Source: Nitrospirota bacterium (GTDB lineage Bacteria; Nitrospirota; UBA9217). Taken from it: 53,826 bases of DNA. Below, piece after piece: positions 6 to 21,915 of this stretch. The position numbers were made by a program, and so were the translations under genes. The DNA is taken from NCBI GenBank assembly GCA_029858565.1, contig JAOUEV010000019.1, positions 1 to 53,826 of the forward strand. Reading direction: 5' to 3'. The notes under the pieces were generated by a model, which was not told the DNA's origin, ran no database searches, and saw only the letters and a program-made list of their open reading frames with translations. Every line of letters starts with the position of its first letter. Position 1 is the stretch's first letter.

Positions 6-914
6 TCACGCTTGCAACCCTCGAAAGAGTTCCTGTTCACGTTCTTTACGCTTTTTTATTTCCATGTCCCGGGCATTCTTTCGTTCCTGATACTTTGCCC
101 GGTCGGCCCTATTCTTCGGCTTCGGCACCAACGGCACATCGCCGCTCACCAGCACAGCGCTCAGGGGCTTGAAAAGATCATCGGCTGCAAGCGTGAACAC
201 CGCCGGCTCGACCGGTTGGCTGGTCTTGACAGCGGTCCAGGGATTAATGGAAGTGAACTGGTACTTGACCGGGTAGAGATCGGGATTGTGGCAGGAAAGA
301 CAGTTCCAGACTGCCGCGGGCCCATGCACGTTGCGGGCCTTGGGGACTTCCCGGTGACAGGAGTAGCAGAGCACATCCTCAGGCTTTTTGTGATTACGGT
401 CCTGATTTTCCACTTCAAGGCGGTGGCACCCGGAGCAATCTGCCTCCTGATCCCGGGAATGGAACAACTGCTGAGTGAAATCGGCAGGGATGCTGCCGAA
501 ACTTTCTTCCCGATTAAAGACCGTGACCGACTTGGTCAGCACGACCGAAAGGCGCGGAGGCTCGCCCTTTTTCCGACTCGCCTCACCACCGGGAGCGGGC
601 GCGAGCACACGCACCGTGATCGTGTTGACTCCTGGCGCGAGATCAACGCCCTGGAAGGCATGACGGCCGCTGGATGTATCAATGACCGGAAACTCCGTTG
701 TACCGGCAACGACCTGGAACAAAGGAACGACGGACCAGTCCGTTGTCGGATCGAGAACGACATTCACCCTCCGCCCGACAGCCGACCGATTTTTCGGAAA
801 AAGGATGGAAAGTTCAGGTGAGGCCGGGGCCGGCATCGGAGCAAATGATCCTGCAACAAGACCGATGACGATTAGCCCTGCGAGTACCGCCACCTTGCGA
901 CGTGATAGTTTCAA
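6..914 (-). CDS. Secreted multiheme c-type cytochrome (3 CxxCH), possibly truncated
   Basis: N-terminal hydrophobic signal; CSGCH, CYSCH, CLSCH; GGGAG RBS before TTG start; stop lies 5 nt from the window edge. Confidence 0.7.
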   Translation of the reverse strand: MKLSRRKVAVLAGLIVIGLVAGSFAPMPAPASPELSILFPKNRSAVGRRVNVVLDPTTDWSVVPLFQVVAGTTEFPVIDTSSGRHAFQGVDLAPGVNTITVRVLAPAPGGEASRKKGEPPRLSVVLTKSVTVFNREESFGSIPADFTQQLFHSRDQEADCSGCHRLEVENQDRNHKKPEDVLCYSCHREVPKARNVHGPAAVWNCLSCHNPDLYPVKYQFTSINPWTAVKTSQPVEPAVFTLAADDLFKPLSAVLVSGDVPLVPKPKNRADRAKYQERKNARDMEIKKRKEREQELFRGLQA

Positions 915-992: not shown

Positions 993-2330
993 TCACCGTG
1001 AATATTTTTTCTCTCCATGGCATCCCGGAAGGCACGCCCCCCCGTTCTTCACAGGCACGAAGTTCATGGGCATGTTCCAGCCGCTGAACAGGACCCCTTG
1101 CTTCACATGCTTGTACTGTCCGCTGTCTGCATGCACTTCATGACATGCCCTGCAGGTACGTCCCTTCCCGACCTTGTTGACATGAACGAAATGAAGATTC
1201 CTCTCGCCGTCGCGAAAGCCCGTTGCGACCTTTGTCTTCTGTTCAGTAAATGCCGTCTTGTCATGACAGGAGAAGCACAATGCATATTTTCCATCGGCAT
1301 ATGTCGTATAGAATTCACTGGGATAGTACTGGGTCAGTATCCTCCAGAAATTGGATCCGTGAGGATTGTGACAGGAGATGCAATCACCGCCCTTGATGGG
1401 GCCGTGGGCGTTCTTGTTCTGGTCAAAGAGAGCCTTCATGTCCATGATCTTGCCCCGGCCGGTCTCAAGCTCCTTGTTATGACAGGCCAGACACAGCGCC
1501 ATAGGCGATGTCAGGAGCAGTTTCGACTGATCGGAGAAGTGGGGATCATGGCAGTTCTTGCAGCTTTTCTGATCTATCATGGGTCCATGTTTCGTGAGCG
1601 ACCGCTGGCGTGCCATTGCCTCGTTCGGATGGCAATTCGCGCAGAGGTCGGGCACAGCAGCGCTCAACATGGCCGGAGTTTCGGAACCGTGAGGACTGTG
1701 GCATTGCACACAGGACTGCTTCACCGGATAATGGCCCACCTTTTTCGTTTTGAGCCCTTCCTCCTTGTCCGGATGGCACTGGAAACACAAGGCGTTGCCG
1801 TCGGCCATGAGGCGGTTCGGAAAATCGCTCTGATGATTGTCGTGACAGCCGGAACAATCTCCTCCGGCAACCGGCGGATGCATGACCTTGTGTTTCACGA
1901 TCGAGTCGGGATGGCACTGAAAACAGATGTCCGGCATTGCCGCTTTGAGCATGCCTTTGTTCGGTGATTGGTGCGGATTATGACAGGACGTACAGTCGCC
2001 GCCCATGATCGGGGCATGTACGACCTTTTTCACGTTCTTGGGCTCATGGCACATTGCGCAGAGTTCCGAACCCTGCTGTGAAAGGGTGATAACGAGGTTG
2101 TTGGGATGCTTGGTCTTCTTTTGCGGATCATCCGCGACCTGGTGGCAGGTCGTACACATGCCTTCCTTCACCGGATTATGTACGAACTGTTCCTTTCCCA
2201 TCGTGGGATGACAGACGGCGGTGACACATCCTTCCGTCTGAGCCGGTGTCGGAGTGGCCCCGGGAGCCCATGCCAGGAAGACGCTTCCGGCGAAGAACAA
2301 CAGCAGCGACCATCGATTCCTCATGTTCAT
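993..2330 (-). CDS. Periplasmic multiheme cytochrome c with paired-CXXCH repeats (13 CxxCH plus CX4CH and CX3CH)
   Basis: Signal peptide; repeated H.P...C..CH.PH...L....LC..CH units; GAGGAGAGG RBS directly before ATG 2330. Confidence 0.9.
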   Translation of the reverse strand: MNMRNRWSLLLFFAGSVFLAWAPGATPTPAQTEGCVTAVCHPTMGKEQFVHNPVKEGMCTTCHQVADDPQKKTKHPNNLVITLSQQGSELCAMCHEPKNVKKVVHAPIMGGDCTSCHNPHQSPNKGMLKAAMPDICFQCHPDSIVKHKVMHPPVAGGDCSGCHDNHQSDFPNRLMADGNALCFQCHPDKEEGLKTKKVGHYPVKQSCVQCHSPHGSETPAMLSAAVPDLCANCHPNEAMARQRSLTKHGPMIDQKSCKNCHDPHFSDQSKLLLTSPMALCLACHNKELETGRGKIMDMKALFDQNKNAHGPIKGGDCISCHNPHGSNFWRILTQYYPSEFYTTYADGKYALCFSCHDKTAFTEQKTKVATGFRDGERNLHFVHVNKVGKGRTCRACHEVHADSGQYKHVKQGVLFSGWNMPMNFVPVKNGGACLPGCHGEKKYSR

Positions 2331-2533
2331 CCTCTCCTCGACACGAAAGGTAACAGCCCAAGACGAACAAGGCATGTCCAGCGGGGACATCGTTCACCCA
2401 GCCCGTGAACATACCGGTTTCCCAGCTGTTTTCCCGGCCGGACCGATTGCATGACCTGATTGCTGAACATCTTCTGGATTGTGTTGCCGGGCCTGTCTCC
2501 GAGCGCTCTCAAAGACAAGATGGGTGTTTGGCC

Positions 2534-2994: not shown

Positions 2995-4659
2995 TTATTT
3001 TGCCGCTGCCGTGCCGCCGCTCAACACAACAGTATAGAATTTACCTGCCGCCACGTCATTGATGCCCGCCACATCCCAGATCCGGACAGGACTCGGTTTA
3101 GGCGGCTGGTTCTTCAGGTCCTTCCCCCACACCCATATCGTACCGTCCCCCATGACCGCGAGAGAGTGATACATGCCCGCGGACACTTTCTTGATGTTCG
3201 CGAGTCCATCGATCCTGAAGGCTGAGCTTCCGTTCGCCGTCTTGTTCCCGAGCTGACTGAACTCATTCCCTCCCCAGGCCCACACACTGCCGTCAGCCTT
3301 AAGCGCAAGCGTGTGGTGAAGACCCGACTGAATATCCATGATGTCGGAGAGACCCTTGACCTGGACCGGTTCCGGGCGGTCGGTCCGCGTTCCGTCGCCC
3401 AGCATGCCATTGATGTTCCACCCCCATGCCCAGACCGTTTTGTCGGACTTTACCGCTACGGTATGATGAAGCCCGGCAGCCACTCCGACAACGCCTGATA
3501 ACGAGGAGACTCGGACCGGGCTGTTCCTGTCCTTCTGTGAGCCATCTCCGAGCTGTCCGTAGACGTTCCTTCCCCACGCCCAGACCGTACCATCAGACTT
3601 CACCGCTACGGTGTGATACATTCCCGCAGCGATCTTTACGATGTCGGATAGACCGCTTACCCTGACCGGAACGTTGCTGTCCTCGGAGTTTCCGTTGCCC
3701 AACTGTCCATAGGAGTTCCTTCCCCACGCCCAGACCGTACCGTTGGACTGCAATGCCACGGTGTGGTACATGCCGGCTGCAACATCGGTCGCCTTCAGCA
3801 GGTCCTTGGCCGCTACCGGAACCCGGCTGTCATCGGTCGTCCCGTTCCCCAGCTGGCCACGATTGTTCCGGCCCCAGGTCCAGACGGAACCATCCGCCTT
3901 GAGCGCGACCGCATGCTCCAGTCCTGCTGATACCTTCACCACGTTCTCGAGACCGCTTACCGGCAGGAAAGCGTCCCGGCCCCCGGTGGATCCGTCGCCC
4001 AGTTGGCCATACTCGTTCATACCGCCGGTCATGACCATGCTGGCCTTGGCAGTTGTCGGCATCCAGCTGCTCCGGACCGGCCAGAGGAAACGGTAATTGC
4101 AGTAGGATATGTAATCCATGATCATTTCACCCGAGGCCATGTCTACGATCCAGATGTAATCGATGATGTCGCGCCCGGTCGACGAGGACCAGTAGAAATG
4201 ATTCTGCACATTCGTGAACGGATGGCCGATCGGAAGTGCTGGATAGAATCTGGACCTGTCCGCCAGCGTCTCTATCTCATTGATCGTTGGAAGACGCCAG
4301 TCGGTGAAACCGAAATTCGGGCGCTTGCCGCTGTTCATCTCCTGCAGGAACTGCTTTGCCCCGTCATAGGGCAGCGGCAAGCTGCTTACATTGGCATCCT
4401 TGATCCATATAAGGCCAGTGTTCTTGTCGAGGATTGCCCCTTCATTCTCAGCGCCATATCGCGCGTTCATCTGCGCTGGAGCTTTGTCTCCCTTGCCCGG
4501 AGAGTCCCTGTCCGGGGCTGACGGATCTGACCCGGCAGTTTCCTTTGCCGCGGCCTTTTTGTCCTTTACGGAAGTTTTTTTCGCAGGAGCCGCCAGAACA
4601 TCCGGTTGGATCGACAGAACCACCAGGATCATCAAGAAACCAGCCAAGGCTTTTCGCAT
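2995..4659 (-). CDS. Secreted DUF1566 (Lcl C-terminal-like) plus RCC1-repeat beta-propeller protein
   Basis: D..TGLIW, GFTDWRLPTINE and YWSSS motifs, followed by about 7 AG..H.VA...DGTVWAWG.N..GQLG repeats. Confidence 0.85.
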   Translation of the reverse strand: MRKALAGFLMILVVLSIQPDVLAAPAKKTSVKDKKAAAKETAGSDPSAPDRDSPGKGDKAPAQMNARYGAENEGAILDKNTGLIWIKDANVSSLPLPYDGAKQFLQEMNSGKRPNFGFTDWRLPTINEIETLADRSRFYPALPIGHPFTNVQNHFYWSSSTGRDIIDYIWIVDMASGEMIMDYISYCNYRFLWPVRSSWMPTTAKASMVMTGGMNEYGQLGDGSTGGRDAFLPVSGLENVVKVSAGLEHAVALKADGSVWTWGRNNRGQLGNGTTDDSRVPVAAKDLLKATDVAAGMYHTVALQSNGTVWAWGRNSYGQLGNGNSEDSNVPVRVSGLSDIVKIAAGMYHTVAVKSDGTVWAWGRNVYGQLGDGSQKDRNSPVRVSSLSGVVGVAAGLHHTVAVKSDKTVWAWGWNINGMLGDGTRTDRPEPVQVKGLSDIMDIQSGLHHTLALKADGSVWAWGGNEFSQLGNKTANGSSAFRIDGLANIKKVSAGMYHSLAVMGDGTIWVWGKDLKNQPPKPSPVRIWDVAGINDVAAGKFYTVVLSGGTAAAK

Positions 4660-5035
4660 AGTATCCACAACCTTCCGTTGTCTCAATTATAATATCGAAC
4701 GCTGCTTTAAATTAAATACGTGGCCTATTGTAGCCAAAGCTATTTTGCTTGTAAAGTATTACTTGGCACGCGACTGCCGGCCTAATGTGATTTTGAGCTC
4801 ATTGGGAAGTAAGTCTCTCAAAATAATTCCACTTTACAATCAATGCAGGGTTATGCTACTCTACGTACGGACATCAGGAACATATTCACTATTGAGCGGT
4901 AATCAACAACAAATGAGCGTATCCGCTCATTATTTTTATGCATTCGTTTTCTAGATAACCTAAAAAAATCAATACGCTTTGTAATAGCGATACAATTTAT
5001 TTTGGTTTTTGAAGGTATAGTAATTGCATAAATCA

Positions 5036-5143: not shown

Positions 5144-6559
5144 ATGCTACGAAATGTCGGTCTTGTTGCGGCAATAGGGATCCTGGCAGTTATGATCGCT
5201 CTGGTTGCAGGGCCGGCGCAGATCGCGTCGGCTGAAGTGAACGATGACTATGCTCTCAAGATCTCCCTGGAGAACCAGATGGAGAGAAAGCTCAAGCAGG
5301 TCATTGTCGAGATCACTGGCACTGACAAGGTCGTGATCTTCGTGAACGCCGAGCTGGTATCCAAGGGCGGTGACCGGGGAAAGATCGAAAAGAAAGCCGA
5401 TGCTCTTGTCCTGCCGGGAGTTCCGGCGAAAAAAGAATTCGGGACCGGCCAGTCCTCGGAGTTGATGCTTCCCGGCTCGGGCAAATACTCGGTCAATAAG
5501 ATCATCCTTTCCATCTGGATCGACAGCAGCGTTCCGGGATCGATCGTCGACCTGATCCAGGACATCGCCAAGAACGTGATCGGTTTCAGCCAGACCCGGG
5601 GCGACCAGATCAACGTGAAAAAAGTGGATTTCGAGTCCAAGGGCTTCTTCCGCACCCTCTTCGCCTTCCCGAACTTCCTGTGGCTGATACTTACCATCGT
5701 CGGCGGTTTCATGCTCGTGACCGTCGGCATGTTCTTCATGGACCCGCTCAAGAAAGTGGTCCCGGCCTTGAAGGATATCGACTGGCCTCTTATTCGCGGC
5801 ACCGGCCAGGCAACGGCGGTCGAGCGAACAACGACCTTTGAGCGCGAGGTCATCTCCGGCGGTGCCGCTCAGCAGGCGGTTCAGTCGCTGGCGCCGCAGG
5901 ACGAAGGGCTTCCTTTCTCGTTCGTCCGCGAACGCGACATCCCCGGCCTGGCGTTCCTGTTAAAGGACCGGACGCCGCAGGACATTGCTATCGCCGTCAA
6001 TTATCTCGATCCAACGTTGTCAATGCGCCTGCTCGAGCGCTTTCCCAAGGAAAAGCAGGTCGAAGTTGCGATCGTTCTCGGTAAAGAAGAGATCAATCCG
6101 GAAAAGGTCACCGCGCTCGAGGAACTGGTCAAGAGCAAGCTGTCCTATGTCGTGGGCGGCGAGAACAAACTGGTCATGCTCCTGGATATGACCAATGAGG
6201 ACGTGCGCGACAAGGTCGTGAAGGCCATGGAGGCAAAGGACGGTCAGGCAGGATCACGTCTTAAGCAGCGGATCAAGTCCCTGGAAACGATCCTCGCCGA
6301 AATGCCGGCCCCGGGCATCCAGACCCTTTACCGCAACATCGACACCACGCTCTTTGCCCAGATACTCAAGTCGTCACCCGATGACATCCAGCAAAAGGTG
6401 ATTTCCTCGCTCAGCACCGGCGCCGCAGAACGGCTCAAAGAGGAGATGCAGCTCAGCCGTACCCTCTCCTTGACACGACTCGCCAGGGAGCGGCAGAACC
6501 TGATGGTCCTGGTCCGGAAGCTGATCAGCGAAGGCATTGTGGAGGTTGAGAACAGCTAA
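5144..6559 (+). CDS. FliF RBM3-like ring domain fused to FliG middle and C-terminal domains
   Basis: Signal peptide; LE..ME.KL...I..I.G...V...VNAEL and IAKNVIGFSQTRGDQINV (FliF C-terminal ring motif); one TM at about aa 178-198; then PFSF, PQDIA, GG linker and LSTGAAERLKEEM, VRKLISEGIV (FliG). Confidence 0.8.
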   Translation: MLRNVGLVAAIGILAVMIALVAGPAQIASAEVNDDYALKISLENQMERKLKQVIVEITGTDKVVIFVNAELVSKGGDRGKIEKKADALVLPGVPAKKEFGTGQSSELMLPGSGKYSVNKIILSIWIDSSVPGSIVDLIQDIAKNVIGFSQTRGDQINVKKVDFESKGFFRTLFAFPNFLWLILTIVGGFMLVTVGMFFMDPLKKVVPALKDIDWPLIRGTGQATAVERTTTFEREVISGGAAQQAVQSLAPQDEGLPFSFVRERDIPGLAFLLKDRTPQDIAIAVNYLDPTLSMRLLERFPKEKQVEVAIVLGKEEINPEKVTALEELVKSKLSYVVGGENKLVMLLDMTNEDVRDKVVKAMEAKDGQAGSRLKQRIKSLETILAEMPAPGIQTLYRNIDTTLFAQILKSSPDDIQQKVISSLSTGAAERLKEEMQLSRTLSLTRLARERQNLMVLVRKLISEGIVEVENS

Positions 6560-6560
6560 T

Positions 6561-7343
6561 ATGGCAAAAACAAACAGCCAAATAGATAAAATGACCATTA
6601 TCGGGCTCGTCGCGATCCTGCTGACGATCCTGTACGTCCTTGCCGTTGGGAACATCCTGCACATGCTCTTCAACCCGCTGGCGCTGATCATCGTATACGG
6701 CGGAACGTTCAGTGCGACGCTGATAGCCTACCCCTGGTCGGTCATCAAGGAGATCGCCCCGTCGCTCCGCATCATGCTGTTCCCGAGCAAGCATTCGGAA
6801 CAGGATATGGAGGAGATGATCGCCACCCTTGCAACCCTCGCTGAAAAGGCGCGCCGGGACGGCATTGAAAGCCTGCAGGCCGAGATCCCGAAGATCACCG
6901 ACAAATTCCTGGTTCACGGCGTCCAGATGCTGGTGGATGGCCTGGAACACGACGTCATCAAGGACAATCTGAGCCGGGAGATATTCTACACCCGTCACAA
7001 CCAGCAGAAGGTCTCCGGGGCCTTCCGGACCATGGCCACGGTCGCTCCCATCTTCGGACTGCTGGGCACACTCATGGGCATCGTTGACATGCTCAGGAAC
7101 CTGTCCAATCCGACCAGCATGGGCGCCGCCATGTCCAACGCGGTGACCGCAACGTTCTACGGCATCTTCTCGGCGAATGTGTTCATCCCGATCGCAACCA
7201 AGCTCACGGACCATAGTGAACGGGATATCATTAACAAGGAAATGATCGCCGAGGGCGTCATGGCGATCCAGGAAGGTGATGTTCCCCTGATCGTACGGAA
7301 GAAACTGACCGCCTTCATCATGGCGCACATGCGGCAGAAGTAA
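6561..7343 (+). CDS. motA: MotA/PomA-family stator A subunit
   Basis: GGTFSATL, ARRDGI, GVQMLVDG, APIFGLLGTLMG, TATFYG and EGVMAIQEG motifs. Confidence 0.9.
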   Translation: MAKTNSQIDKMTIIGLVAILLTILYVLAVGNILHMLFNPLALIIVYGGTFSATLIAYPWSVIKEIAPSLRIMLFPSKHSEQDMEEMIATLATLAEKARRDGIESLQAEIPKITDKFLVHGVQMLVDGLEHDVIKDNLSREIFYTRHNQQKVSGAFRTMATVAPIFGLLGTLMGIVDMLRNLSNPTSMGAAMSNAVTATFYGIFSANVFIPIATKLTDHSERDIINKEMIAEGVMAIQEGDVPLIVRKKLTAFIMAHMRQK

Positions 7344-7372: not shown

Positions 7373-8050
7373 ATGTCAGAAATAAGCGATAAAGATAAAG
7401 AGAGCGGCAACATCTGGTTGATCATCTTCTCGGATATCACGACCAACCTCATGCTGTTCTTTCTCATGCTCTTTGCCATGACCCGCATGACCTCTGCGGA
7501 CAAGCAACTCCTGGTGGCCGGCATGGAAAGCACGGTCATCAATGAAGCTTCCCGCAAGCAGGTAGAGATGGAGCGCCAGGCAAAGAAGCAGCGTGAGGAA
7601 GAGGCCATCAAGCGTCTTCAGCAGGCAGTCAGCGAAGGCCGGCTTGCCGGAAAAACCGCTATCAATGTCACCGACAAATCGGTCAATATCGCCTTGAATC
7701 CGGAGTCATTCTTTTCCATCGGAAGCGCCAAGCTCAACCCCGGAACGATCAATGTGCTTGAGGACCTGGTGACGCTCATAGAATCCTTTCCCAATGATAT
7801 CATCATTGAAGGTCATACGGACCCGACGCCGGTGCGGGGAGGCGCTTATCGCTCGAACTGGGAACTCTCGATCGCACGGGCTGTCGGCGTCGTGAACTTC
7901 TTCACTGCATCAGGGCTGAATCCCAAACAGCTTGTAGCCGCAGGCTACGGCGAGTTCCATCCCGCTTATGCAAACGATACGGAAGCGAACCGCGCCCGGA
8001 ACAGGCGCATCGAGATCACGCTGGTCCGCCAGCCGGGAGAGATGCTGTGA
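7373..8050 (+). CDS. motB: MotB-family stator B subunit with OmpA-like domain; catalytic Asp present
   Basis: WLIIFSDITTNLMLFF TM helix; EGHTD, SNWELSIARA, GYGEFHP, NRRIEI. Confidence 0.9.
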   Translation: MSEISDKDKESGNIWLIIFSDITTNLMLFFLMLFAMTRMTSADKQLLVAGMESTVINEASRKQVEMERQAKKQREEEAIKRLQQAVSEGRLAGKTAINVTDKSVNIALNPESFFSIGSAKLNPGTINVLEDLVTLIESFPNDIIIEGHTDPTPVRGGAYRSNWELSIARAVGVVNFFTASGLNPKQLVAAGYGEFHPAYANDTEANRARNRRIEITLVRQPGEML

Positions 8051-8715
8051 TATCGGCGCTCCAAAGATTCGTCCGGTATACCGAAGAGCACATGGAAGAG
8101 ACCGAGCTCTGGATGCTGCCCTACAGCACCCTGATGCTCACCCTGGTCATCCTGTTCATCATGTTCTACGCCTTTTCCCAATCCCAGTCCGTCGAGTACG
8201 AGACCGCCCTGTCCGACCTTGCCTCGACCAATCCCGACGATCCACGTGTCAAACAGCTGAAGCAGGAGATCGCCCTTGCACAGAATATCCGCGACTTCAT
8301 ACAGAAGAACAATCTTGCCGGCAAGATCCAGGTAATCATGACCCCCCACTCCATCAAGATCAAGATGGAGAGCCTCGCGCTGTTCGACAGCGGAAGCGCC
8401 GATCTGAAACAGGACAGCAGGATGTTTCTTGACCATTTGCACGAGCAGCTCAAACCGCTGAGCAACCGTGTCATTGCCGAGGGTCACACCGACAATGTGC
8501 CGATCCACACTGCCCAGTTCAACTCGAACTGGGAGCTTTCTTCGGCCCGGGCCTTCAGCGTCATTTACTATTTCATCAACAAGGGGCTCGCGCCGGAACG
8601 CCTGGTCGCGCATGGGCTCGGTGAATACCGGCCTGCGTTCTCGAACGAGTCCGAAACCGACCGGGCGAAGAACCGCCGGATCGAGATCACGATTGTAAGA
8701 GGAGTCTCCGGGTGA
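8047..8715 (+). CDS. motB: Second MotB-family protein; Thr at the catalytic Asp position
   Basis: WMLPYSTLMLTL TM helix; EGHTD, SNWELSSARA, NRRIEI; GTGA overlap with the preceding motB. Confidence 0.85.
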   Translation: MISALQRFVRYTEEHMEETELWMLPYSTLMLTLVILFIMFYAFSQSQSVEYETALSDLASTNPDDPRVKQLKQEIALAQNIRDFIQKNNLAGKIQVIMTPHSIKIKMESLALFDSGSADLKQDSRMFLDHLHEQLKPLSNRVIAEGHTDNVPIHTAQFNSNWELSSARAFSVIYYFINKGLAPERLVAHGLGEYRPAFSNESETDRAKNRRIEITIVRGVSG

Positions 8716-10007
8716 AAAAGGCCGTACTTATCCTGTCGTGCATCCTGGTCCTCACCGGCAGCGCGGAAGCGCTGACCCCCAAGCAGGTAGAGCGCGTCGA
8801 TCAGCTCAAAAAGGATGTCGTATCCCTTTTTCGTGAGCGCAAGTTCGACCAGGCAGTGCCGCTGCTGAATGAGGTGCTTTCCATCGATCCTCTGGACAAG
8901 ACCGCGACCCGCTACCTTGCTCTGGCCCGCCAGCAGAGCATGGAAACCTATTGCAAGGATGCGGCAGACGCTTTCCAGAACGAGGACTATGCCAAGGCCA
9001 TTGAGACCTGGGACCGCCTGCTCAAAATGAATCCCGACGACCGGCGCTTCGCGAATCTCATCGAGACAACGAAGAATCTCATTTCGGACAAGGTCACCGG
9101 CGAAATGTTCGAACGGGCAGAGAAATTCGTGAATGAAGGCGACTACAAGGCCGCGGTCAATGAGCTGGAGAAGATCCTCGCCGTCCGTCCCTACGACACA
9201 CGGGCTCGCGCGCTTTACAACAACGCGAAAAGCAATGTCGTCGATGCCCGCACGAAGAAACATTACGACCAGGCCGAGACGTACATGAAGGAAAAACAGT
9301 ACGACCGCGCGATCGAAGAATGGAAGCGAGTGCTGGAAATCGACAATACCCAGGAGGCGGCTTCCCGCTATATCGCCACCGCCGTCAGAGAAAAGATGGG
9401 GAGTCTCTATGGCGACGCGCGGCAGGCCTACGAGCGGGGCGACTATCTTACGGCACGGGACCTTTACAACAGGATCCTTGCCGACAATCCCACGGACCTT
9501 GACGTGAAAACGATCGTTTCCCGCCTCGACGACGTGGCCAAGGTCGCCCTGAAGATCGATGATAAAAGCCAGGCCGGAGACATGATGCGGAAGGCTATGG
9601 CCCTGTATATAGCTGTTGACGGCAACCGCAAGGCCTCAATGGCGGCAGCCTGGTATGCTTTCCAGCTTAACCCGAATTCGCTGACCATCGCCGTCAAGGG
9701 ATTTCTCGAACTGAAATATGCATCGATCCTGAGCACCATGGAGGCACCGGTCGGCGATATGAACATCATCGATCAGTACCTTTTTGCGGCCCTGAACAGG
9801 ATCTACGAAGGACGATACGACATCGCCATTCAGGCCTGCACCATTGTCATCGAACTGCATCCGAACAACGTGCTGGCATGGAAACGGCTCGGTTCAGGCT
9901 ATTATGCGATCGGCAAGAAGGATAAAGCGAGAGATGCATGGGAGCGCGCACTCAAGATCACACCCGATGATGCCGAGCTTAAGCAGTTCCTGCGTCAGAC
10001 AAAATGA
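8712..10007 (+). CDS. Secreted tetratricopeptide-repeat protein
   Basis: Signal peptide (AEA); multiple A...W..VL.I.P-type TPR helical pairs; GTGA overlap with the second motB. Confidence 0.85.
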   Translation: MKKAVLILSCILVLTGSAEALTPKQVERVDQLKKDVVSLFRERKFDQAVPLLNEVLSIDPLDKTATRYLALARQQSMETYCKDAADAFQNEDYAKAIETWDRLLKMNPDDRRFANLIETTKNLISDKVTGEMFERAEKFVNEGDYKAAVNELEKILAVRPYDTRARALYNNAKSNVVDARTKKHYDQAETYMKEKQYDRAIEEWKRVLEIDNTQEAASRYIATAVREKMGSLYGDARQAYERGDYLTARDLYNRILADNPTDLDVKTIVSRLDDVAKVALKIDDKSQAGDMMRKAMALYIAVDGNRKASMAAAWYAFQLNPNSLTIAVKGFLELKYASILSTMEAPVGDMNIIDQYLFAALNRIYEGRYDIAIQACTIVIELHPNNVLAWKRLGSGYYAIGKKDKARDAWERALKITPDDAELKQFLRQTK

Positions 10008-10045: not shown

Positions 10046-11521
10046 ATGAATACGAAGATACTTATAACGACGATCAACATGACCATTCTCTGCATCATTG
10101 CAGCATTATGCGCTGCACCGACCCCGGCCCTTGCCGCCCAGGACCAGGAGTGCGGTAAATGCCACGACGCAATGAGCAGGGGCAAAGTCCTGCACCCGGC
10201 GCTCAAGAAGGGCTGCACTGCCTGTCATACCGCATCCCACCCCGGGACGCCGGGCAAGGACAAGGCGGTCCTTTCGCTTCGTTCCGAGCAGCCCGACCTT
10301 TGTTACGACTGTCACAGCCGGAACCTGTTCCTTCGGAGATACCAGCACAAGCCCGCGGTCTCGGGAAAATGCACGGCCTGTCACAATCCGCATTCTTCGA
10401 ACAACATGTATCTGCTCACCACGTCAATGCCCGATCTGTGCTGGAAGTGCCACGACAAAAAGATCGTCACGAAACAAACGACCCATTTCCCCTCGACTGC
10501 CGGCCTCTGCTCGGCCTGCCATGACGCGCACAGCTCCGACAGCCATGAGAAACTGTTGACGTCCAACATGCCGGAATTATGCTATAAATGCCATGACAAG
10601 GCCAGCATCGGCGGCATGCAGAACGTCCACCAGCCGGTCATCTCAGGGAAATGTACCGCCTGCCACAATCCTCATTCGCAGGTGGCGAAGAACCTCCTGG
10701 CCGCAGACGGCGCGGCACTCTGCTATACCTGTCACGATAAGAAGACCTTTACCGACGGCATCGCCCACACGCCCGTGGAACAGGGCGGCTGTCTTGGCTG
10801 CCACGCCCCCCATCAATCGAGGTCCGAGAAACTGCTTCTTGCGAAGCAGCCTGACCTCTGTTTCCTCTGCCATGAGAAGAAGTCGTTCACCGGCGAAAAA
10901 TACGGCCACAAGCCCGTTACCGGCGGTCGTTGCACGACCTGTCACCGTCCGCATGCCGCCAAGGCAAAGAATCTGCTTACAAAATCGACTCCAGGCATCT
11001 GCTTTGAATGCCATATGACCGAGGAGCTCGGCGGACGGGAAAAACACGGACCCTTCAAGATCGGCATGTGCAACAGCTGTCATAAATCCCACCAGAGCAA
11101 CACGTCGAAACTGCTGATCGGAAAGACCCCTGACCTCTGTTTCACCTGCCACAGCACGGAGGATTTCAAGAACAAGGTGGTCCACAAACCGGTCGCAGAC
11201 GGAAAATGCTACGACTGTCACGGGATCCATACGACCCCCTTCAAGAACCTGAGCAAAGCGGATGGCAATGAATTGTGCCGAAAATGCCACCAGGACGTGT
11301 TCCGCGGCTCCCACCCGAATACGCAGCTGCCTGCAGACCTGCGATCAAAGAAACGGGGCACGACCACCGGTCATCCCCTGGATAAGGTGGATGATCCGAA
11401 ACGACCGGGTAAAAGTATGGCGTGTATTAGCTGCCATAACCCGCATAGCGCTGAATGGAAAGGCCTGTTCCGCTATAAAGCGGAGAAACCCCAGGACCTT
11501 TGTCAGCACTGCCACAGATAG
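10046..11521 (+). CDS. 19-heme periplasmic cytochrome c with paired-CXXCH repeats
   Basis: Signal peptide (ALA); 19 CxxCH counted; regular two-heme repeat of about 47 aa. Confidence 0.9.
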   Translation: MNTKILITTINMTILCIIAALCAAPTPALAAQDQECGKCHDAMSRGKVLHPALKKGCTACHTASHPGTPGKDKAVLSLRSEQPDLCYDCHSRNLFLRRYQHKPAVSGKCTACHNPHSSNNMYLLTTSMPDLCWKCHDKKIVTKQTTHFPSTAGLCSACHDAHSSDSHEKLLTSNMPELCYKCHDKASIGGMQNVHQPVISGKCTACHNPHSQVAKNLLAADGAALCYTCHDKKTFTDGIAHTPVEQGGCLGCHAPHQSRSEKLLLAKQPDLCFLCHEKKSFTGEKYGHKPVTGGRCTTCHRPHAAKAKNLLTKSTPGICFECHMTEELGGREKHGPFKIGMCNSCHKSHQSNTSKLLIGKTPDLCFTCHSTEDFKNKVVHKPVADGKCYDCHGIHTTPFKNLSKADGNELCRKCHQDVFRGSHPNTQLPADLRSKKRGTTTGHPLDKVDDPKRPGKSMACISCHNPHSAEWKGLFRYKAEKPQDLCQHCHR

Positions 11522-11559
11522 TTCGGCATGATGGTTGCTCAGGAACAGCCAATCTGAGG

Positions 11560-11587
11560 TTGACTCCCGGGCTGAAATAGGTATAAT
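11560..11587 (+). promoter_or_regulatory. Sigma70-like promoter for the c7-type cytochrome pair
   Basis: TTGACT-N16-TATAAT, 40 nt upstream of the ATG, which has an AAGGAG RBS. Confidence 0.55.
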
Positions 11588-11627
11588 GCATGAGAAATCA
11601 GTTTGTTTGCCGGAAGGAGAACACGAG

Positions 11628-12419
11628 ATGAGATTCAAGGCTTTGATTGTCCTGCTGGTCGTTGCCATCACCCTGCTCGCTTCCATTGCCCTTGCCACGA
11701 ACTTTGGCACCAAGAAACGGATGCCCCGCCCCCAGGAGTTCGGCAATGTGATCATCAACAATTACTCGGAGAAGAACAATATCGCGCCGGTGGTGTTCAA
11801 GCATTGGATACACCGGACCAAGTATACCTGCAGGGTCTGTCACGTGGACGTCGGTTTTGCCATGGAAGCGGGCGGCAGCGATATCAAGGAAGAGGATAAC
11901 AAGAACGGACTGTATTGCGGCTCCTGCCATAACGGCAAGGAAGCTTTCGCGGCCACGGCACGGGAAAAGCTCGTCACCGAGGTCCAGAATTGCGATCGGT
12001 GCCATTCCTACGGCAAAGAGGTCAAGAACCAGAAGGATTTCAATGAATATCTCAAGGACTTCCCCCAGGCCAGGTTCGGCAACCGGATCGACTGGATGAA
12101 GGCCGAGGCTACGGGCAGGATCAAGCTCAAAGACCTGGTCGAGGGAATTTCGATGAAGCGCCAGGCCATCGCAGCGCCCAAGGACTTTGATATCAAGTCA
12201 ACGATCCTCGGCATGCCGGACATCATCTTCTCGCACAAGATCCATGCGGAGATCAACGGATGCGAGCTCTGTCATCCCGAAGTGTTCGGTGCCAAAAAAG
12301 GTGTGACCAAGTACTCCATGCAGGACATCTTTGCCGGGAAGTACTGCGGTTCCTGTCATGCCAAGGTCGCGTTTCCGTTCTATGACTGCCAGCTGTGCCA
12401 TCTGAAAGAGGTGTATTGA
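11628..12419 (+). CDS. Hexaheme cytochrome with two c7-type triheme domains
   Basis: PVVFKHWIH...CRVCH, CGSCH, CDRCH and IIFSH..H...CELCH, CGSCH, CQLCH; signal peptide. Confidence 0.9.
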   Translation: MRFKALIVLLVVAITLLASIALATNFGTKKRMPRPQEFGNVIINNYSEKNNIAPVVFKHWIHRTKYTCRVCHVDVGFAMEAGGSDIKEEDNKNGLYCGSCHNGKEAFAATAREKLVTEVQNCDRCHSYGKEVKNQKDFNEYLKDFPQARFGNRIDWMKAEATGRIKLKDLVEGISMKRQAIAAPKDFDIKSTILGMPDIIFSHKIHAEINGCELCHPEVFGAKKGVTKYSMQDIFAGKYCGSCHAKVAFPFYDCQLCHLKEVY

Positions 12420-12446
12420 TCCGATCAGCCTGATGGAACATCCTGT

Positions 12447-13187
12447 ATGCACAGTGCGGTACTTTATCTCGCGATCCTTATGGCCGGCAGCAACTTCGAC
12501 GGGGTGTGGAAATTCCCTCCTCCACCCCCGCCGGAGCAGTACGGGAATGTTCTGATCACTCGTCTTACATCCAAGAGCACGCACCCGCCCGTGGCTTTTT
12601 CTCATTGGCTTCACCGGCGTTATTTCACCTGCAGGGTATGCCATTTCGAGCTTGGTTTCGCGCTCAAAACAAATACCACCGAGATCACGGAAGCAAAGAT
12701 CCGCAAAGGCGAGTATTGCGGGGCCTGTCACAATGATCGGGTCGCCTTTGGCGTGAGCGAAGGCACCTGTACCATGTGCCATACCGGAAAGGTCAGTTCC
12801 TCGGATGGACGTTTTTCAGAACTGAAAGACCTTCCGAAATCACGGTATGGGGACGGTCTCAACTGGGTCAAGGCACTCAGAAAGAACTTTATCCAGCCAA
12901 AGGCCAGTATCCTCGACAGTAAGTATGAATCCATCCCCTTTGACAAGAACCTGCGGCTCGAGCCTGAGTGGGGTCTGATCAAGACAAAAGCGATCTTTCC
13001 CCATGCCAAGCATACGGAGTGGCTCGACTGCGCTGACTGTCATCCCGACATCTTTAACATCCAAAAAAAGGGCACCCGGCACTTTCGCATGGAATATATG
13101 CTCGAAGGAAAGTTCTGCGGCGCCTGCCATCTCACTGTGGCATTCCCCCTCCAGGACTGCAAACGCTGCCATCCTGACCTTGACTGA
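12447..13187 (+). CDS. Hexaheme c7-type cytochrome, paralogue of the upstream gene
   Basis: Six CxxCH in the same layout; shared YG/FG-NV.I and WV/MKA motifs. Confidence 0.9.
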   Translation: MHSAVLYLAILMAGSNFDGVWKFPPPPPPEQYGNVLITRLTSKSTHPPVAFSHWLHRRYFTCRVCHFELGFALKTNTTEITEAKIRKGEYCGACHNDRVAFGVSEGTCTMCHTGKVSSSDGRFSELKDLPKSRYGDGLNWVKALRKNFIQPKASILDSKYESIPFDKNLRLEPEWGLIKTKAIFPHAKHTEWLDCADCHPDIFNIQKKGTRHFRMEYMLEGKFCGACHLTVAFPLQDCKRCHPDLD

Positions 13188-13421: not shown

Positions 13422-14789
13422 TCAGATCAATCCGAATCGTTTCATCCTGCGGCGGAATGCGTCCCGGGGCATTTTTAGCAGCTGTGATGCCCTGGTCTGG
13501 TTCCCGCCTGCCATTTCGAGCGCTTTCTTGACCAGGGCATTCTCCACTTCCTCTATAGATATGCCGCTTTCCGGTATCGTCAGGCAATCCAGCGAAACGG
13601 GTGTTAGCGAACTATCCATGGGCGCGGCATGCTGTTCAAGAATTTCCGGTGACAGATGCTCCGGCATGATCTCTTTATCGATCTCAAAGATCATGGCTCG
13701 CTCGATCACATTCTTAAGTTCACGGACATTGCCGGGCCACGGATAGGACAGAAATACCTGTTCGGCCTCTTTGGATATGCCCTGAACGCTTTTATGGCAT
13801 TCTCTGTTGAAGTGATCTGTAAAATGTCGGGCCAGCAAAAGTATGTCACGTCCACGGTCACGAAGCGGAGGAAGCATGATCGGGACGACCTGCAGCCGAT
13901 AATATAGGTCCTTGCGAAAACGCCCTTCGTTCATGGCGCGGGAAAGATCCTGGTTCGTGGCAGATATCACACGAACATCCACTTTGATATCCTTGACACC
14001 GCCGATACGTCGAAAGGATTTTTCTTCAAGTATCCGCAGCAGCTTTGCCTGCATGCTGATATCCATATCGCCGATCTCATCCAGGAACACGGTCCCGCCA
14101 TCGGCCAGTTCGAAAAGTCCCTTCTTTGCAGCTTTTGCATCGGTGAATGCACCCTTTTCATGACCCATCAACTCGCTTTCCAGCAGCGTCAACGGCAGTG
14201 CAGCGCAGTTGATAGCCATAAAAGGTCTTTCTGCGCGCAGACTTCCCGAATGGACCGCTTTTGCGACCAACTCCTTGCCTGTTCCACTTTCTCCCTGGAT
14301 AAGCACGGTCGTTGCGTCACTCTTCGCGATCTTCGCGATAAGGTCCTTCACCCGGAGCATCATGTCCGTCTCTCCGATGATGGCGTCGACTTTCCCCCTG
14401 AGCTGCTTGACCTGGGACCTGAGGGAACCCGCTTCGAGGGCCTTTCGGATAACGAAGGTTATCTCCTCCAGATTAAAGGGCTTGCTGATATAGTCATAGG
14501 CGCCAAGCTTCATCGCCTTCACAGCGGTCTCCACCAGGCCATAGGCCGTGATCATAATGACCATGATGCCCCGCTCAGGCACATTCAATTTTTCCAGCAG
14601 TTCGAGACCGGTCATTTCAGGCAGCCTGTTATCCAGGAGGAGCAGATCAGGAGCTTCCTCATTGATAAGCTGGAGCCCTTTTTCCGCCGAGTCAGCGGTC
14701 ACTACTTCGTACCCCTCCCGCACAAGATGCTGCTCGAGTGTCCACCGAATTAGCTTTTCATCATCAATAACAAGGATCTTATATGCCAT
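13422..14789 (-). CDS. NtrC-family sigma54-dependent response regulator
   Basis: Receiver domain; GESGTGKE; GAFTDA; FLDEIG; WPGNVREL; Fis-type HTH. Confidence 0.95.
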   Translation of the reverse strand: MAYKILVIDDEKLIRWTLEQHLVREGYEVVTADSAEKGLQLINEEAPDLLLLDNRLPEMTGLELLEKLNVPERGIMVIMITAYGLVETAVKAMKLGAYDYISKPFNLEEITFVIRKALEAGSLRSQVKQLRGKVDAIIGETDMMLRVKDLIAKIAKSDATTVLIQGESGTGKELVAKAVHSGSLRAERPFMAINCAALPLTLLESELMGHEKGAFTDAKAAKKGLFELADGGTVFLDEIGDMDISMQAKLLRILEEKSFRRIGGVKDIKVDVRVISATNQDLSRAMNEGRFRKDLYYRLQVVPIMLPPLRDRGRDILLLARHFTDHFNRECHKSVQGISKEAEQVFLSYPWPGNVRELKNVIERAMIFEIDKEIMPEHLSPEILEQHAAPMDSSLTPVSLDCLTIPESGISIEEVENALVKKALEMAGGNQTRASQLLKMPRDAFRRRMKRFGLI

Positions 14790-14791
14790 GC

Positions 14792-16282
14792 TTAAATACT
14801 CCCTGTCACAGATTCCTGTTTATTTGGGGAAGGAAGCACGATCGTGAACACGGAACCTTTTCCCGGTGCACTCTGCACGCTGATCTCACCATTATGCTGT
14901 TCAACAATACGCTGGGTGATCGACAGCCCCAGTCCGGTGCCCTGCTGCCGCGTCGTGAAGAAGGGGCTGAAGATCCTTCCCAGGTTTTCCTGATTGATGC
15001 CTTCACCGGAATCGGAGAGGCCGATCCGGATCGCGCCGCCGCCATCCTTGGTCACATCCACATTCGTTTCAACAATAAACCGTCCGCCCTGGGGCATTGC
15101 CTTGATCGCGTTCAAGGCGATGTTGAGCAGTGCCTGTTGCATCAGATCAGGGTCCAGGACCAGCCAGGGCAGCCCAGCGGTCATTTTTCTCTCAGACGTT
15201 ATACCATGCTTGGCGAACTGGGGCGCCAGAAAGTCGAGCAGTCGGCTCAGCAGTTCGTTCACATCCACGAGGGTCATTTTTGGCTCAGGAGGCCGCGCGA
15301 ACGAAAGCAGGTTCCTTACAGCCTTATCCATGCGCTCGACCTGGGAAAGCACTTCATCCAGTACCGCCCGTTTGGGATCACCGATGGGGATATCACCCTT
15401 CAGGACCTGGATCACCCCGGCAATACCCGCAAGGGGATTCTTGATCTCATGGGCAATTCCTGCCGCCATTTCACCGATAGAGGCCAGTCGGTCCGCCCGT
15501 TTCATCTGCTCATAGTGATACCGTTCCACGCGGCGGCGTGCCCGTTCGAGCTTTGTCAGCAGGGAATTAAAAGCCTCCGCAAGCCTGCCGATGTCATCCT
15601 TGCTCTTTACCTGCGCTCGGGCTTCAAGCCCGCGCTCGGCCCGCTCCATTGTATCAATGAGCTCCTGGATGGGCGTGGTCACATAGCGCGTCAGAAAAAG
15701 CGACAAAGATATTGCCAGGGTAGCCGTGATGCCGAACGCCCACAGGATCATGGTCTTGCTGAGCTCCCCGACCTTTTCCTGCGTCTGGGTCATGGACACG
15801 TCCACCGCAAGAACGCCGTTCAATTTCACCGTACTGCCGTGGCATGAATAACACTGCTCGGAATTCTCGATCGGGAACAAGACCGAGAAGATCCCTTCCT
15901 CGCGGCGCTTGATCGGTCGTTTGAACTTCCCTTCGAGGAACCACTTCTGGGTCGCCCCGTCAATGCGTCTGCCGATCTGTCCGCGCTTGGAGGCCTTCAA
16001 GATCACCCCATTGGGGCTGAATATCCTCAGGCCGCGGATATTATGATAGCCGCCCACAGCCTCCAGGATATGCTGGACCTCTCGGCTCTTGCCTGCGACC
16101 ATGGCATTTGAGAGGCTTTTCTCGATCGTATTGGAAATAATGAGGACATTGTCCTCGAGCGCCGACTCCATCTGTCCCTGCTGATAACGGATATTGATCC
16201 ACGTACCAATGCCGATGATCACCGCAAGGATCGCGGAAACGGAAAGAATGATCTTGCTTCTGAGGCTTGAAATGAGGATCAC
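14792..16282 (-). CDS. Sensor histidine kinase with periplasmic CxxCH motif and HAMP domain
   Basis: Two TMs flanking a domain containing CYSCH; HAMP; AHEIKNPL H-box; N, G1, F and G2 boxes. Confidence 0.92.
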
Positions 16283-17250
16283 GCCACGATCACCTGTCCG
16301 ATGAGATCGCGCACCGAAGGGATGCCCTCCCGTTTCAGATGGGAAGCAAGTCCGTCGGCAATATCAAGGGTAGCGCGGGGATTGATAAAATTGCCCGTCC
16401 CCACCGCTATCGCGGTCGCCCCCGCAAGGATGAACTCCAGCGCATCCTCCGGGGTCATGATCCCGCCCATGCCGATGATCGGCAGTTTAACCGCCCGGGC
16501 GACTTGCCAGACCATGCGCACGGCAACCGGCTTGATCGCGGGACCCGAAAGACCTCCGGTGACATTGGCCAGCCGGGGCTTCCTGCAACGAACATCGATC
16601 GCCATGCCCAGCAGCGTATTGATCAGTGAGAGTCCGTCGCATCCCGAGCCTTCGGCAGCACGGGCGAACTCGGTTATGTCGGTCACGTTCGGCGACAATT
16701 TCGCGATCAATGGCAATTTTGTCGCTTTTCGCAGCGCCGTTAAAAGCTCCGATGCTGCTTTCACGTTCGTCCCGAACACAATGCCGCCGGCTTTAACGTT
16801 CGGGCAGGAGATGTTCACTTCAAGACCGGCGATTCCCGGGATGCCATCCAACCGCTCGGTCACCGCCACGTATTCCTCGAGGCTGTAGCCGAAGATATTC
16901 ACGATGACCGCAGTATCGTAGCTCCTGAGGATGGGAAGTTTTTCATTGATGAAAACGTCGACTCCCGGATTTTCGAGCCCGATGGCATTCAACATGCCTG
17001 CAGGTGTTTCCCAGATGCGGGGGGGAGGATTTCCTTTGATCGGCCTTGCTGACACACCCTTCACAATGATGCCGCCGAGCCTGTTCAGATCGATGATATC
17101 CTTGAATTCCTCGCCGTATCCGAAGGTCCCGGAAGCGGTCATCACGGGATTCTTCATCTTTATTCCGGCGACGTTCACTGACAGGTCGGGCGAAGTTACG
17201 CATTTCGACGCTTTTGCCGGTATACCTTTCTTCAACTCAGCACTCCGCAC
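16279..17250 (-). CDS. pyrD: Dihydroorotate dehydrogenase (family 1B) catalytic subunit
   Basis: [39 protein letters not shown]. Confidence 0.95.
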
Positions 17251-17273
17251 ATCGCGCTCCGTTTACTTCAGGA

Positions 17274-18098
17274 TTATTTCCGATGGAGCGCCGGCAAGAC
17301 CACCTGCTCGCTCCAGTCTATGTCGGACGACTTGAACACCGGTCCTTCTTTGCATACCCGTTTATAACCGCCGGTCCGTACCGCGACGGAACAACCCATG
17401 CACACTCCAAGACCGCAGGCCATCCGCTCTTCCATTGAGACAAAACAGGATATCCCCCGCTCAGCTGCCAACTTGCTCACCGCCGCCATCATGGAGCGGG
17501 GACCGCATGCATATATTACAAAGGATTCCCGGTCGTTCCGCGAATCAAGGAAAGCCGCAAGGCCGTCAGTCACGAATCCTCTTGTCCCTGCGCTTCCGTC
17601 ATCAGTGGCAATATACACCTTTTCCGCCTGCTCTCTGCAGCTCTTTATGGCGCGAAGAGGAGGAAGGCATTCCTTGTCACGGGCGCCGAGGAACATGTAA
17701 AGGGGATGCCGCATTGACAGGGCAAAGTATAGAAGCGGAGGAAATCCGCTGCCTCCTGCAACAAGAAGCGGAGTGGTCCCCTTTTCCGGCGCAGGGAACC
17801 CGTTGCCGAGCGGTCCCTGGACCTGGAGGACAGCATCGCGCTCAACTGTTGCAAGGAGCGCTGTTCCACGTCCGACAACACGGTAGAAAAGCTCGATGTA
17901 CTGTTTTGATTTGACCGCTGCGATTCCGAACGGACGTGCGAGAATGGGGTCCTGATTCTCCGATACCCGCAGCATGACGAACTGACCGGGCCTTGCCTGT
18001 TTTGCCAGGCCGGGCGCTTTCAGCACGATGCGAAAGTATCCCCGTCCTGCTTCCTGGTGCAGAACAACTGTGGCTTGATGCAGCTTAGTCGGCGGCAA
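17274..18098 (-). CDS. pyrK: Dihydroorotate dehydrogenase electron-transfer subunit
   Basis: PGQFVM, RPF, GPLGNGF, ACGP and MACGLGVCMGC...VCKEGPVF 2Fe-2S motif. Confidence 0.93.
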   Translation of the reverse strand: MPPTKLHQATVVLHQEAGRGYFRIVLKAPGLAKQARPGQFVMLRVSENQDPILARPFGIAAVKSKQYIELFYRVVGRGTALLATVERDAVLQVQGPLGNGFPAPEKGTTPLLVAGGSGFPPLLYFALSMRHPLYMFLGARDKECLPPLRAIKSCREQAEKVYIATDDGSAGTRGFVTDGLAAFLDSRNDRESFVIYACGPRSMMAAVSKLAAERGISCFVSMEERMACGLGVCMGCSVAVRTGGYKRVCKEGPVFKSSDIDWSEQVVLPALHRK

Positions 18099-21875: not shown

Positions 21876-21915
21876 GAATACCCTCTTTCGTAAACCTAAA
21901 ATCTAATCCTTTATC

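Follow-up and report, generated by a model that had tools for sequence, protein, structure and literature searches.

We analyzed a 53,826-nucleotide stretch of DNA from a Nitrospirota bacterium (GenBank assembly GCA_029858565.1, contig JAOUEV010000019.1, positions 1 to 53,826), hereafter called the window, and concentrated on one gene at 5144-6559 (+). This gene encodes a natural fusion of 471 residues, in which a signal-peptide-like N terminus, a domain of the FliF ring-building motif 3 (RBM3) type, a transmembrane helix and a linker are followed by the middle (FliG_M) and C-terminal (FliG_C) domains of the flagellar rotor protein FliG. Very probably, the gene belongs to a functional, non-flagellar module made of flagellar motor parts. 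We propose, with a probability of roughly 0.6 for the mechanism as a whole, that its product is the rotor protein of a stand-alone, ion-driven rotor-stator module. To our knowledge, the pair of flagellar rotor and stator (FliF/FliG with MotAB) has no known occurrence outside the flagellum.

Domain architecture of the fusion protein

The reading frame is open throughout, and the opposite strand is rich in stops. Pfam placed the end of a FliF RBM3 (YscJ_FliF_C, PF08345) at residues 115-163 (27.2 bits, cut-off 23.8), FliG_M at residues 269-337 (34.4 bits, cut-off 25) and FliG_C at residues 361-467 (56.9 bits, cut-off 23.3); the same scan gave no match to FliG_N (PF14842) or to YscJ_FliF (PF01514), which represents RBM1/RBM2. 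With the NCBIfam equivalogs for FliG (TIGR00207) and FliF (TIGR00206), the protein scored 74.9 and 24.8 bits, below the respective cut-offs of 226.7 and 129.75. Thermotoga maritima FliG (1lkv) aligned with residues 257-466 at an E value of 4e-18, starting at PFSFV, the beginning of the middle domain; its VGG falls on the GG hinge of the fusion, where G338 is invariant.

From the N terminus, a signal-peptide-like segment (residues 1-30; 5144-5233) ends in ASA before EV. The first half of the RBM3-type domain, a helix and a strand (residues 31-75; 5234-5368), was assigned from the profile, model and fold matches described below. It is followed by a short insert with an invariant LPGVP at the place of the FliF beta-collar (residues 76-114; 5369-5485) and by the second half, a strand, helix and strand with an invariant RGD (residues 115-165; 5486-5638). 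A single transmembrane helix (residues 168-210; 5645-5773), seen in the hydropathy plot and in the full-length model, leads into a cytoplasmic linker (residues 211-255; 5774-5908) that occupies the place of the FliF tail and FliG-N. The FliG middle domain (residues 256-340; 5909-6163) runs from an invariant PFSF to the GG hinge, and the C-terminal domain with its torque helix completes the protein (residues 341-471; 6164-6556); Pfam, alignment, conservation and model agree on both, and their model confidence (pLDDT) is 80-92. In the T. maritima alignment, RTPQD stands opposite EHPQT and IKSL opposite MFVF, while some distant subfamilies retain IFTF at the latter place. We take the canonical EHPQR to be the FliM-binding motif and MFXF to be the switching hinge, and their replacement by RTPQD and IKSL fits the absence of FliM/FliN (see below).

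This is the architecture that the first-pass annotation had read from the letters, and it holds, including the GG hinge, the single transmembrane segment and the absence of RBM1/RBM2 and FliG-N. The one RBM3-like domain with its insert also stands; its limits move from about residues 40-163 to about residues 31-165.

Fold and topology of the periplasmic domain

An alignment of residues 31-172 with the equivalent part of 16 relatives (alignment A2) was used as a profile. It matched the 144-residue FliF chain 9yh6_Oj over positions 13-139 (E 7e-6) and the RBM3 ends of other FliF proteins from Salmonella, Vibrio and others at E values of 4e-5 to 1e-3; a match to SpoIIIAG was weak (E 0.007). AlphaFold2 modeled the same residues as helix, strand, a 38-residue low-confidence insert, strand, helix and strand, with a mean pLDDT of 62 and 70-80 in the core. 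In the model, this order matches the topology of a ring-building motif that carries an insertion at the place of the FliF beta-collar. A Foldseek search of the Protein Data Bank (PDB) returned 18 matches at E ≤ 0.001, all of them FliF (17 MS-ring or S-ring chains and one integrative FliF model) with TM scores of about 0.5-0.6; the next matches (OsmC/Ohr) were a hundred times weaker. The RBM fold that had been proposed for this domain is thus borne out. A single prediction with four copies of the domain scored 0.12, which is evidence neither for nor against oligomers.

Hydropathy analysis of the whole protein showed an N-terminal hydrophobic segment and one transmembrane segment. The full-length model (mean pLDDT 71.4) contains a long helix at residues 177-210 and has low confidence in the insert (residues 75-112) and in the linker (residues 221-253, pLDDT <50). 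The N terminus resembles a Sec signal peptide, and it is probably cleaved at ASA|EV, as judged from conservation: A30, at position -1 to EVNDD, is nearly invariant in 20 homologues.

Breadth of the family and selection

A word-indexed search retrieved 86 relatives of 270-498 residues (nearly all 456-498) with identities down to 28%; the named ones come from Nitrospirota metagenome-assembled genomes, and three shorter rows look partial. An exhaustive profile search yielded 7314 proteins at E ≤ 0.001, a number that includes ordinary FliG, and 302 cluster representatives (50% identity) at E ≤ 1e-30. The best 150 of these 302 all have E ≤ 2e-51 and lengths of 182-796 residues, and almost every one aligns along the entire profile, periplasmic domain through FliG_C. 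Across 26 divergent members (20-43% identical), the invariant or nearly invariant residues include P91 and G92 of LPGVP, R152 and D154 of RGD, P201, F258 and F260 of PFSF, the hinge G338, and G426 and E434 of the torque helix. Rows of the Atlas, which we use as leads only, place the same three domains in clusters from Elusimicrobiota, Cloacimonadota, Bdellovibrionota, Bacteroidota and Thermodesulfobacteriota. FliG_C was found in 39 of 101 sampled Elusimicrobiota genomes, up to six copies per genome and almost all in open reading frames (ORFs) of 470-840 residues; about three are of canonical FliG size. These genomes (G406-G501, loci L128-L146) show a large paralogue expansion of fusion-type ORFs.

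Ratios of nonsynonymous to synonymous substitution (dN/dS) were estimated by the Nei-Gojobori method from 15 coding sequences (105 pairs, 36 of them saturated), leaving out partial loci and the frameshifted L009 and L010. The overall value was 0.166, the ten least saturated pairs gave 0.08-0.23, and every domain stayed below 0.3. The two halves of the RBM3-type domain are the most constrained (0.05 and 0.09), followed by FliG_C (0.17), FliG_M (0.18), the transmembrane segment (0.21), the insert (0.24) and the linker (0.29). All regions lie well below 1 and are thus under purifying selection; this is a working gene. Together with the conserved synteny with MotA and MotB described next, the values agree with the earlier suggestion of selection rather than decay. 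Several cluster genes of L009 and L010 appear frameshifted; with so many genes affected, assembly error seems a likelier cause than decay.

Conserved gene order

The fusion gene heads a tight row on the same strand that continues with MotA, two MotB proteins, a tetratricopeptide repeat (TPR) protein and three c-type cytochromes. The flagellar-type MotA (6537-7343, +; 268 residues as listed, with a true start that may lie some 15 codons later) matches Pfam MotA_ExbB and MotA_N. By Pfam and alignment, MotB1 (7373-8050, +) has a plug, a transmembrane helix with the channel Asp (FSDITT) and an OmpA-like domain, and MotB2 (8047-8715, +) has a plug, an OmpA-like domain and a Thr at the channel-Asp position (PYSTLM). 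The TPR partner (8712-10007, +; 431 residues) carries a conserved signal peptide. The cytochromes (10046-13187, +) contain 19, 6 and 6 CXXCH motifs, and a secreted protein with Lcl_C and an RCC1 beta-propeller (2995-4686, -; Pfam) lies upstream and is transcribed divergently from the fusion. The first-pass annotation of the fusion gene did not mention the two MotB proteins, the TPR partner or the beta-propeller protein.

We compared 19 loci from species-representative genomes, 17 of them from Nitrospirota or unclassified and two from Elusimicrobiota. MotA lies directly 3′ of the fusion in all 19, and all 16 Nitrospirota-type loci that extend far enough have MotB1, MotB2 and the TPR protein. 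Of the 16 loci with DNA on the upstream side, 13 have the RCC1 gene there, and the three cytochromes are linked in 13 of 15 clade loci with enough DNA, in one case (L018) shifted upstream yet adjacent. A metagenome scan, which used one distant subgroup with TPR repeats fused after FliG_C and whose counts cover that subgroup and the relatives pulled in with it, gave 76 loci, 64 of them with a full-length fusion ORF; these loci are non-independent samples. MotA was present in 26 of the 30 with at least 4 kb downstream. It directly adjoined the fusion in 14 loci and lay at a distance of 0.5-7 kb in 16, with one MotB in 18 and two in ten.

A Pfam scan of 101 neighboring ORFs in 12 distant loci found, directly upstream of the fusion, a protein of ∼540 residues with an outer-membrane-barrel-like N terminus (weak PorV, UPF0164, FadL or TraF matches) and C-terminal TPRs. 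Also recurrent in these loci were MotA and MotB, giant secreted proteins (beta-propeller or Ig-rich) or giant ORFs that match no family, and often a kinase or regulator. The TPR protein of the window is homologous to the TPR part of two of the barrel-plus-TPR proteins (33% and 32% identity over ∼207 residues, E 4e-32 and 5e-28), and, among 47 loci with 1.8 kb or more of upstream DNA, a model of this partner TPR found a separate ORF in 38, in 34 of them immediately ahead of the fusion. Judged from gene order, the conserved core is TPR partner, fusion, MotA and MotB, and the pattern is consistent across loci. We considered whether the TPR protein of the window corresponds to the C-terminal TPRs of the long fusion variants and rejected this; the latter are cytoplasmic, because no transmembrane segment lies between FliG_C and the TPRs, and the former has a signal peptide.

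Several variants of the locus were seen in passing. At L095:1915-3774, the periplasmic and transmembrane part and the FliG_MC part are two adjacent ORFs, either a split form or a frameshift, and four loci (L071, L072, L078 and L079) carry a tandem pair of fusion genes. A giant ORF (985-1545 residues) separates the fusion from MotA in the TPR-fused subgroup (L040:9297-12332, L055:9140-13090, L051:3659-6613, L086:5393-10027); three have no Pfam family and that of L055 has a sub-threshold ADIP match. It may be a further conserved component.

Stator and torque interface

The MotA of the window aligned with ten solved MotA/PomA sequences at E values of 1e-41 to 1e-23 and is, by sequence, a true flagellar-type MotA. 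MotB1 has the plug, the OmpA-like domain and the channel Asp (F[SA]D), the Asp in 16 of 16 clade loci. MotB2 keeps the plug and OmpA domain and has Thr at the channel-Asp position (PY[SA]T), the Thr likewise in 16 of 16. Among other lineages with two MotB proteins, the second has Asn in L062 and in L088, L090, L091 and L093 and retains Asp in L020, L069, L075, L076, L080 and L084; flagellar MotB of related genomes has Asp in five of five cases. The stator of the window may thus contain one active and one inactive B subunit.

At the rotor-stator contact, we take the positions equivalent to Escherichia coli FliG R281, D288 and D289 and to MotA R90 and E98 from our alignments and from the standard numbering. 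The torque helix of the fusion keeps the acidic pair as EE (D288/D289) and a nearly invariant E434; the R281-equivalent is Gly across the family, with G426 nearly invariant. On the stator side, the R90-equivalent is kept, and 17 of 18 clade MotA proteins have Q, S or A at the E98-equivalent, the exception being the Elusimicrobiota locus L020; flagellar MotA of related genomes has Glu here in five of five. In the flagellar motor, the charge pairs are R90-D289 and E98-R281, according to the excerpted text of PMC7564593. One rotor-stator charge pair is therefore gone on both sides and the other kept. The double loss is not general, as the TPR-fused subgroup has a MotA Glu with a FliG Gly.

Absence of a flagellum and origin of the module

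The host genome (3.9 Mb in 144 contigs, 100% complete by markers) contains no YscJ_FliF, no FHIPEP (FlhA), no FliMN_C and no flagellin match. Its only FliG_C is the fusion ORF, and it has three MotA_ExbB genes in all. The first-pass annotation had supposed that there is no export apparatus, and the genome has neither this nor a switch. Searched with the periplasmic-domain profile, a sample of 401 genomes of the phylum gave a two-peaked distribution: 17 genomes had a full-length match at E ≤ 7e-30, and about 51 had weak partial matches in ORFs of 500-550 residues, which are canonical FliF. Within the family of the window (f1, 64 genomes), 14 genomes have the fusion and 17 have FlhA, and both occur together only in G010 and G250, so that 12 of 14 carriers lack FlhA. 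In G010, a canonical FliG (137 bits on FliG_C, 354-residue ORF) lies near FlhA, and the fusion (58 bits) lies elsewhere. FlhA was also found in one of five genomes reached through related loci. The rarity of this overlap and the separate FliG of G010 argue that the module is independent of the flagellum. In another Nitrospirota genome, a FliG_C match of 97.8 bits in a 576-residue ORF (G009:C7:29234-29548) falls between canonical FliG and fusion scores and may represent another architecture.

The FliG_MC parts were compared in an unrooted tree of 89 rows and 221 columns, built by a quick IQ-TREE search and supported by SH-aLRT values only. All 32 canonical FliG (30 Nitrospirota, two Elusimicrobiota) were split from all 57 fusions with 99% support, so that the FliG part of the fusion is not a recent offshoot of FliG of the same phylum. 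The first-pass annotation had described RBM1/RBM2 and FliG-N as lost, which the tree does not show: the fusion is an old separate branch and, because the tree is unrooted and its canonical FliG come from two phyla, the fusion may be either streamlined from a flagellar ancestor or primitively simple. In a MotA tree of 55 rows, module and flagellar MotA grouped together, and 12 of the 15 ExbB/TolQ-like proteins lay away from them. One clade (98%) united the five flagellar MotA; the module MotA fell into two (99% each), one of which includes a probably misplaced, long-branch ExbB/TolQ-like row (L148); the tree has several long branches and leaves the order of these three clades open. The two module MotA clades comprise the same loci as the two main fusion groups, which indicates that rotor and stator were inherited together.

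A bolder reading, which we hold to be quite unlikely, makes the fusion and MotAB the sister line, or a surviving form, of a rotor-stator module older than the flagellum and not a stripped flagellum. An ion-driven ring of RBM3 and FliG would then have worked, and would still be working, without type III export, the flagellum would have arisen by the joining of such a ring to an export gate, and in the Nitrospirota clade the machine would turn or position the secreted beta-propeller protein and multihaem cytochromes at the surface.

Proposed mechanism and alternative explanations

From the homologies, fold, selection, synteny, joint inheritance of rotor and stator and absence of a flagellum, all of which the data support directly, we infer a ring, its rotation, its contacts and an output as follows. 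The fusion protein would be exported, probably with cleavage of its signal peptide, and held in the inner membrane with the RBM3-type domain in the periplasm and FliG_M and FliG_C in the cytoplasm. FliF assembles into a ring of about 33-35 subunits, and copies of the fusion would likewise assemble through RBM3 into a ring resembling the S-ring, with FliG forming a second ring on the cytoplasmic side; the covalent link would substitute for the joint between FliF tail and FliG-N. MotA, MotB1 with its channel Asp and MotB2 without one would form a stator anchored to peptidoglycan by the OmpA-like domains, pushing the FliG_C torque helix and so turning the ring. The collar-like insert with LPGVP and the periplasmic TPR partner, which in distant relatives appears fused to an outer-membrane-barrel-like domain, could transmit this movement to the envelope. 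The target may be the secreted beta-propeller protein. Possible outputs are surface movement, the handling of adhesins or some process of the outer membrane, in the Nitrospirota clade perhaps one tied to multihaem cytochromes. The three c-type cytochromes may be part of the machine.

A number of observations weigh against this proposal. The mechanism is drawn from genes and models. Confidence in the periplasmic model is no more than moderate (mean pLDDT 62), with the insert unmodeled. The fusion of the Nitrospirota clade lacks both the EHPQR and the MFXF motif, and the family-wide Gly at the R281-equivalent implies that the torque contact is unlike that of flagella. The essential Asp is absent from MotB2; judged from E. 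coli MotB D32 mutants, a stator with a mixed B dimer might work poorly. The cytochromes are absent from two of 15 loci (L009 and L013). Among the neighbors in the window there is no barrel-type Pfam match, unlike in the loci of distant relatives.

Some of these points would suit the main rival explanation, an energy transducer that does not rotate, which we consider unlikely. Here the fusion would dock MotAB through FliG_C, and power strokes would drive a conformational change that the periplasmic domain and the TPR protein pass on to the outer membrane, in the manner of TonB with ExbBD and of TolA with TolQR. It would account for partners that are periplasmic or outer-membrane-barrel-like TPR proteins, for switch and hinge motifs that are not kept in the clade and for the Asp-less MotB2, and it does without the ring, which we only infer. 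However, all 18 fold matches of the periplasmic domain are to FliF, whose RBM3 builds rings, and the stator is of the flagellar MotA type and not of the ExbB/TolQ type. In addition, TonB and TolA contact their motors through a transmembrane helix, not through a FliG domain.

It is very unlikely that the module serves chiefly in signaling or mechanosensing, with ion flow through MotAB or the load on the ring read by the neighboring histidine kinase and sigma54 regulator, which would control envelope or cytochrome genes. The kinase and regulator do remain linked to the cluster, even after the rearrangement of L010, and kinases or regulators also occur in the distant modules L076, L091 and L086. 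However, two-component genes are common neighbors of any regulated operon, a sigma54 promoter motif is conserved in none of 13 related intergenic regions, and the conserved TPR and beta-propeller partners would be left unexplained. Finally, the idea that the protein serves a true flagellum as an additional or alternative rotor part, or is what remains of a decaying one, is close to refuted: all domains derive from flagellar proteins and two of 14 family carriers have FlhA, but the other 12 do not, the host genome lacks every other flagellar marker tested, dN/dS is far below 1 in all domains, the FliG part is a lineage apart from canonical FliG, and the module has its own stator genes. The stand-alone rotor-stator module is thus the explanation that we prefer.

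Other genes of the window

Downstream of the cytochromes lie a sigma54-dependent response regulator and a HAMP histidine kinase (13422-16282, -), the pair that stays with the cluster in L010. A sigma54 promoter upstream of the fusion was considered and rejected: the window has a GG/GC-anchored match with at most two mismatches, the 13 related intergenic regions have none, and window-wide the sigma54 consensus matched 41 times against 52 expected. Multihaem cytochromes flank the module, with 13 CXXCH motifs and two variant ones at 993-2390 (-) and three at 6-914 (-); the former lies beyond the RCC1 gene on the upstream side.

Further downstream, 16279-28011 (-) holds an ordinary pyrimidine biosynthesis block with dihydroorotate dehydrogenase B, carbamoyl-phosphate synthase, dihydroorotase, aspartate carbamoyltransferase and a phosphoribosyltransferase-domain gene (PyrR- or PyrE-like); a GreA gene sits among them. 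An ORF of 1860 residues without a Pfam family (34509-40091, -) is adjoined by a pilin-like pair with N-terminal methylation motifs (32409-34045), and two proteins with Big_9 immunoglobulin (Ig) domains are encoded nearby (29634-31762, -). From this surrounding (29634-40091, -), the large ORF may encode a giant surface protein associated with a pilus or pseudopilus.

Significance and comparison with known systems

In the literature outside subscription journals we found no description of a natural FliF-FliG fusion, only engineered fusions and a stator phylogeny, and the module looks like an undescribed machine made from flagellar motor parts. If our reading is true, a widespread, selected and co-inherited module, mostly without FlhA in the family of the window (12 of 14 carriers), means that the torque-generating core can work alone and with a different output. 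It would offer a natural minimal system for ring assembly and torque, with a single rotor protein of 471 residues and neither FliG-N nor a switch, a direct test case for a stator running on one Asp-bearing and one Asp-less B subunit, and a new data point on the evolutionary assembly of the flagellar motor.

Like the engineered FliF-FliG fusions (e.g., PDB 8z4d, which matches the FliG part at E 2e-10), the protein is one polypeptide. In the excerpted text of three papers, fusions of Salmonella or Vibrio FliF and FliG assemble into rings (PMC11481574, PMC10941966, PMC6079021). As far as those excerpts describe them, they are laboratory constructs of full-length FliF and FliG inside a flagellum, whereas the present fusion is natural, about half the size and non-flagellar. 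With SpoIIIAG, the ring protein of the sporulation channel (PDB 5wc3), it shares a single ring-building motif, an insertion between the first two strands, a membrane anchor and the lack of an export gate; its best sequence and fold matches, in contrast, are to FliF RBM3, and SpoIIIAG has neither a FliG part nor a stator.

Motors of the 5:2 type with outputs in the envelope include ExbBD-TonB, TolQRA, AglRQS-Glt and GldLM, and AglRQS combines one A with two B subunits. The module resembles these systems in coupling a MotA-family ion motor to periplasmic or outer-membrane partners, as far as they are described in the excerpted text of the stator phylogeny (PMC12505986). It differs in its flagellar-type MotA and MotB, its peptidoglycan anchor and its FliG-bearing ring protein, which none of those systems has. 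The excerpt mentions FliG once, as the rotor partner in the flagellum, and the supplements of that work might list such MotA homologues within the flagellar clade.

The module can also be set beside the core of the flagellar motor itself (FliF RBM3/S-ring, FliG and MotA5B2/PomAB). Both have an RBM3-type fold with a conserved RGD at its end, FliG_M and FliG_C joined by the GG hinge, an acidic pair in the torque helix, a flagellar-type MotA with the R90-equivalent, and a MotB with plug, channel Asp and OmpA-like peptidoglycan anchor. Unlike the flagellar core, the module has no RBM1/RBM2, FliG-N, export gate, rod, hook, filament or FliM/FliN; in this clade, EHPQR and MFXF are not kept, the E98/R281 pair is lost and a second MotB has no Asp. 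A cleavable-looking signal peptide replaces the first transmembrane segment of FliF, the collar is only ∼40 residues long, and the module has TPR and beta-propeller partners of its own.

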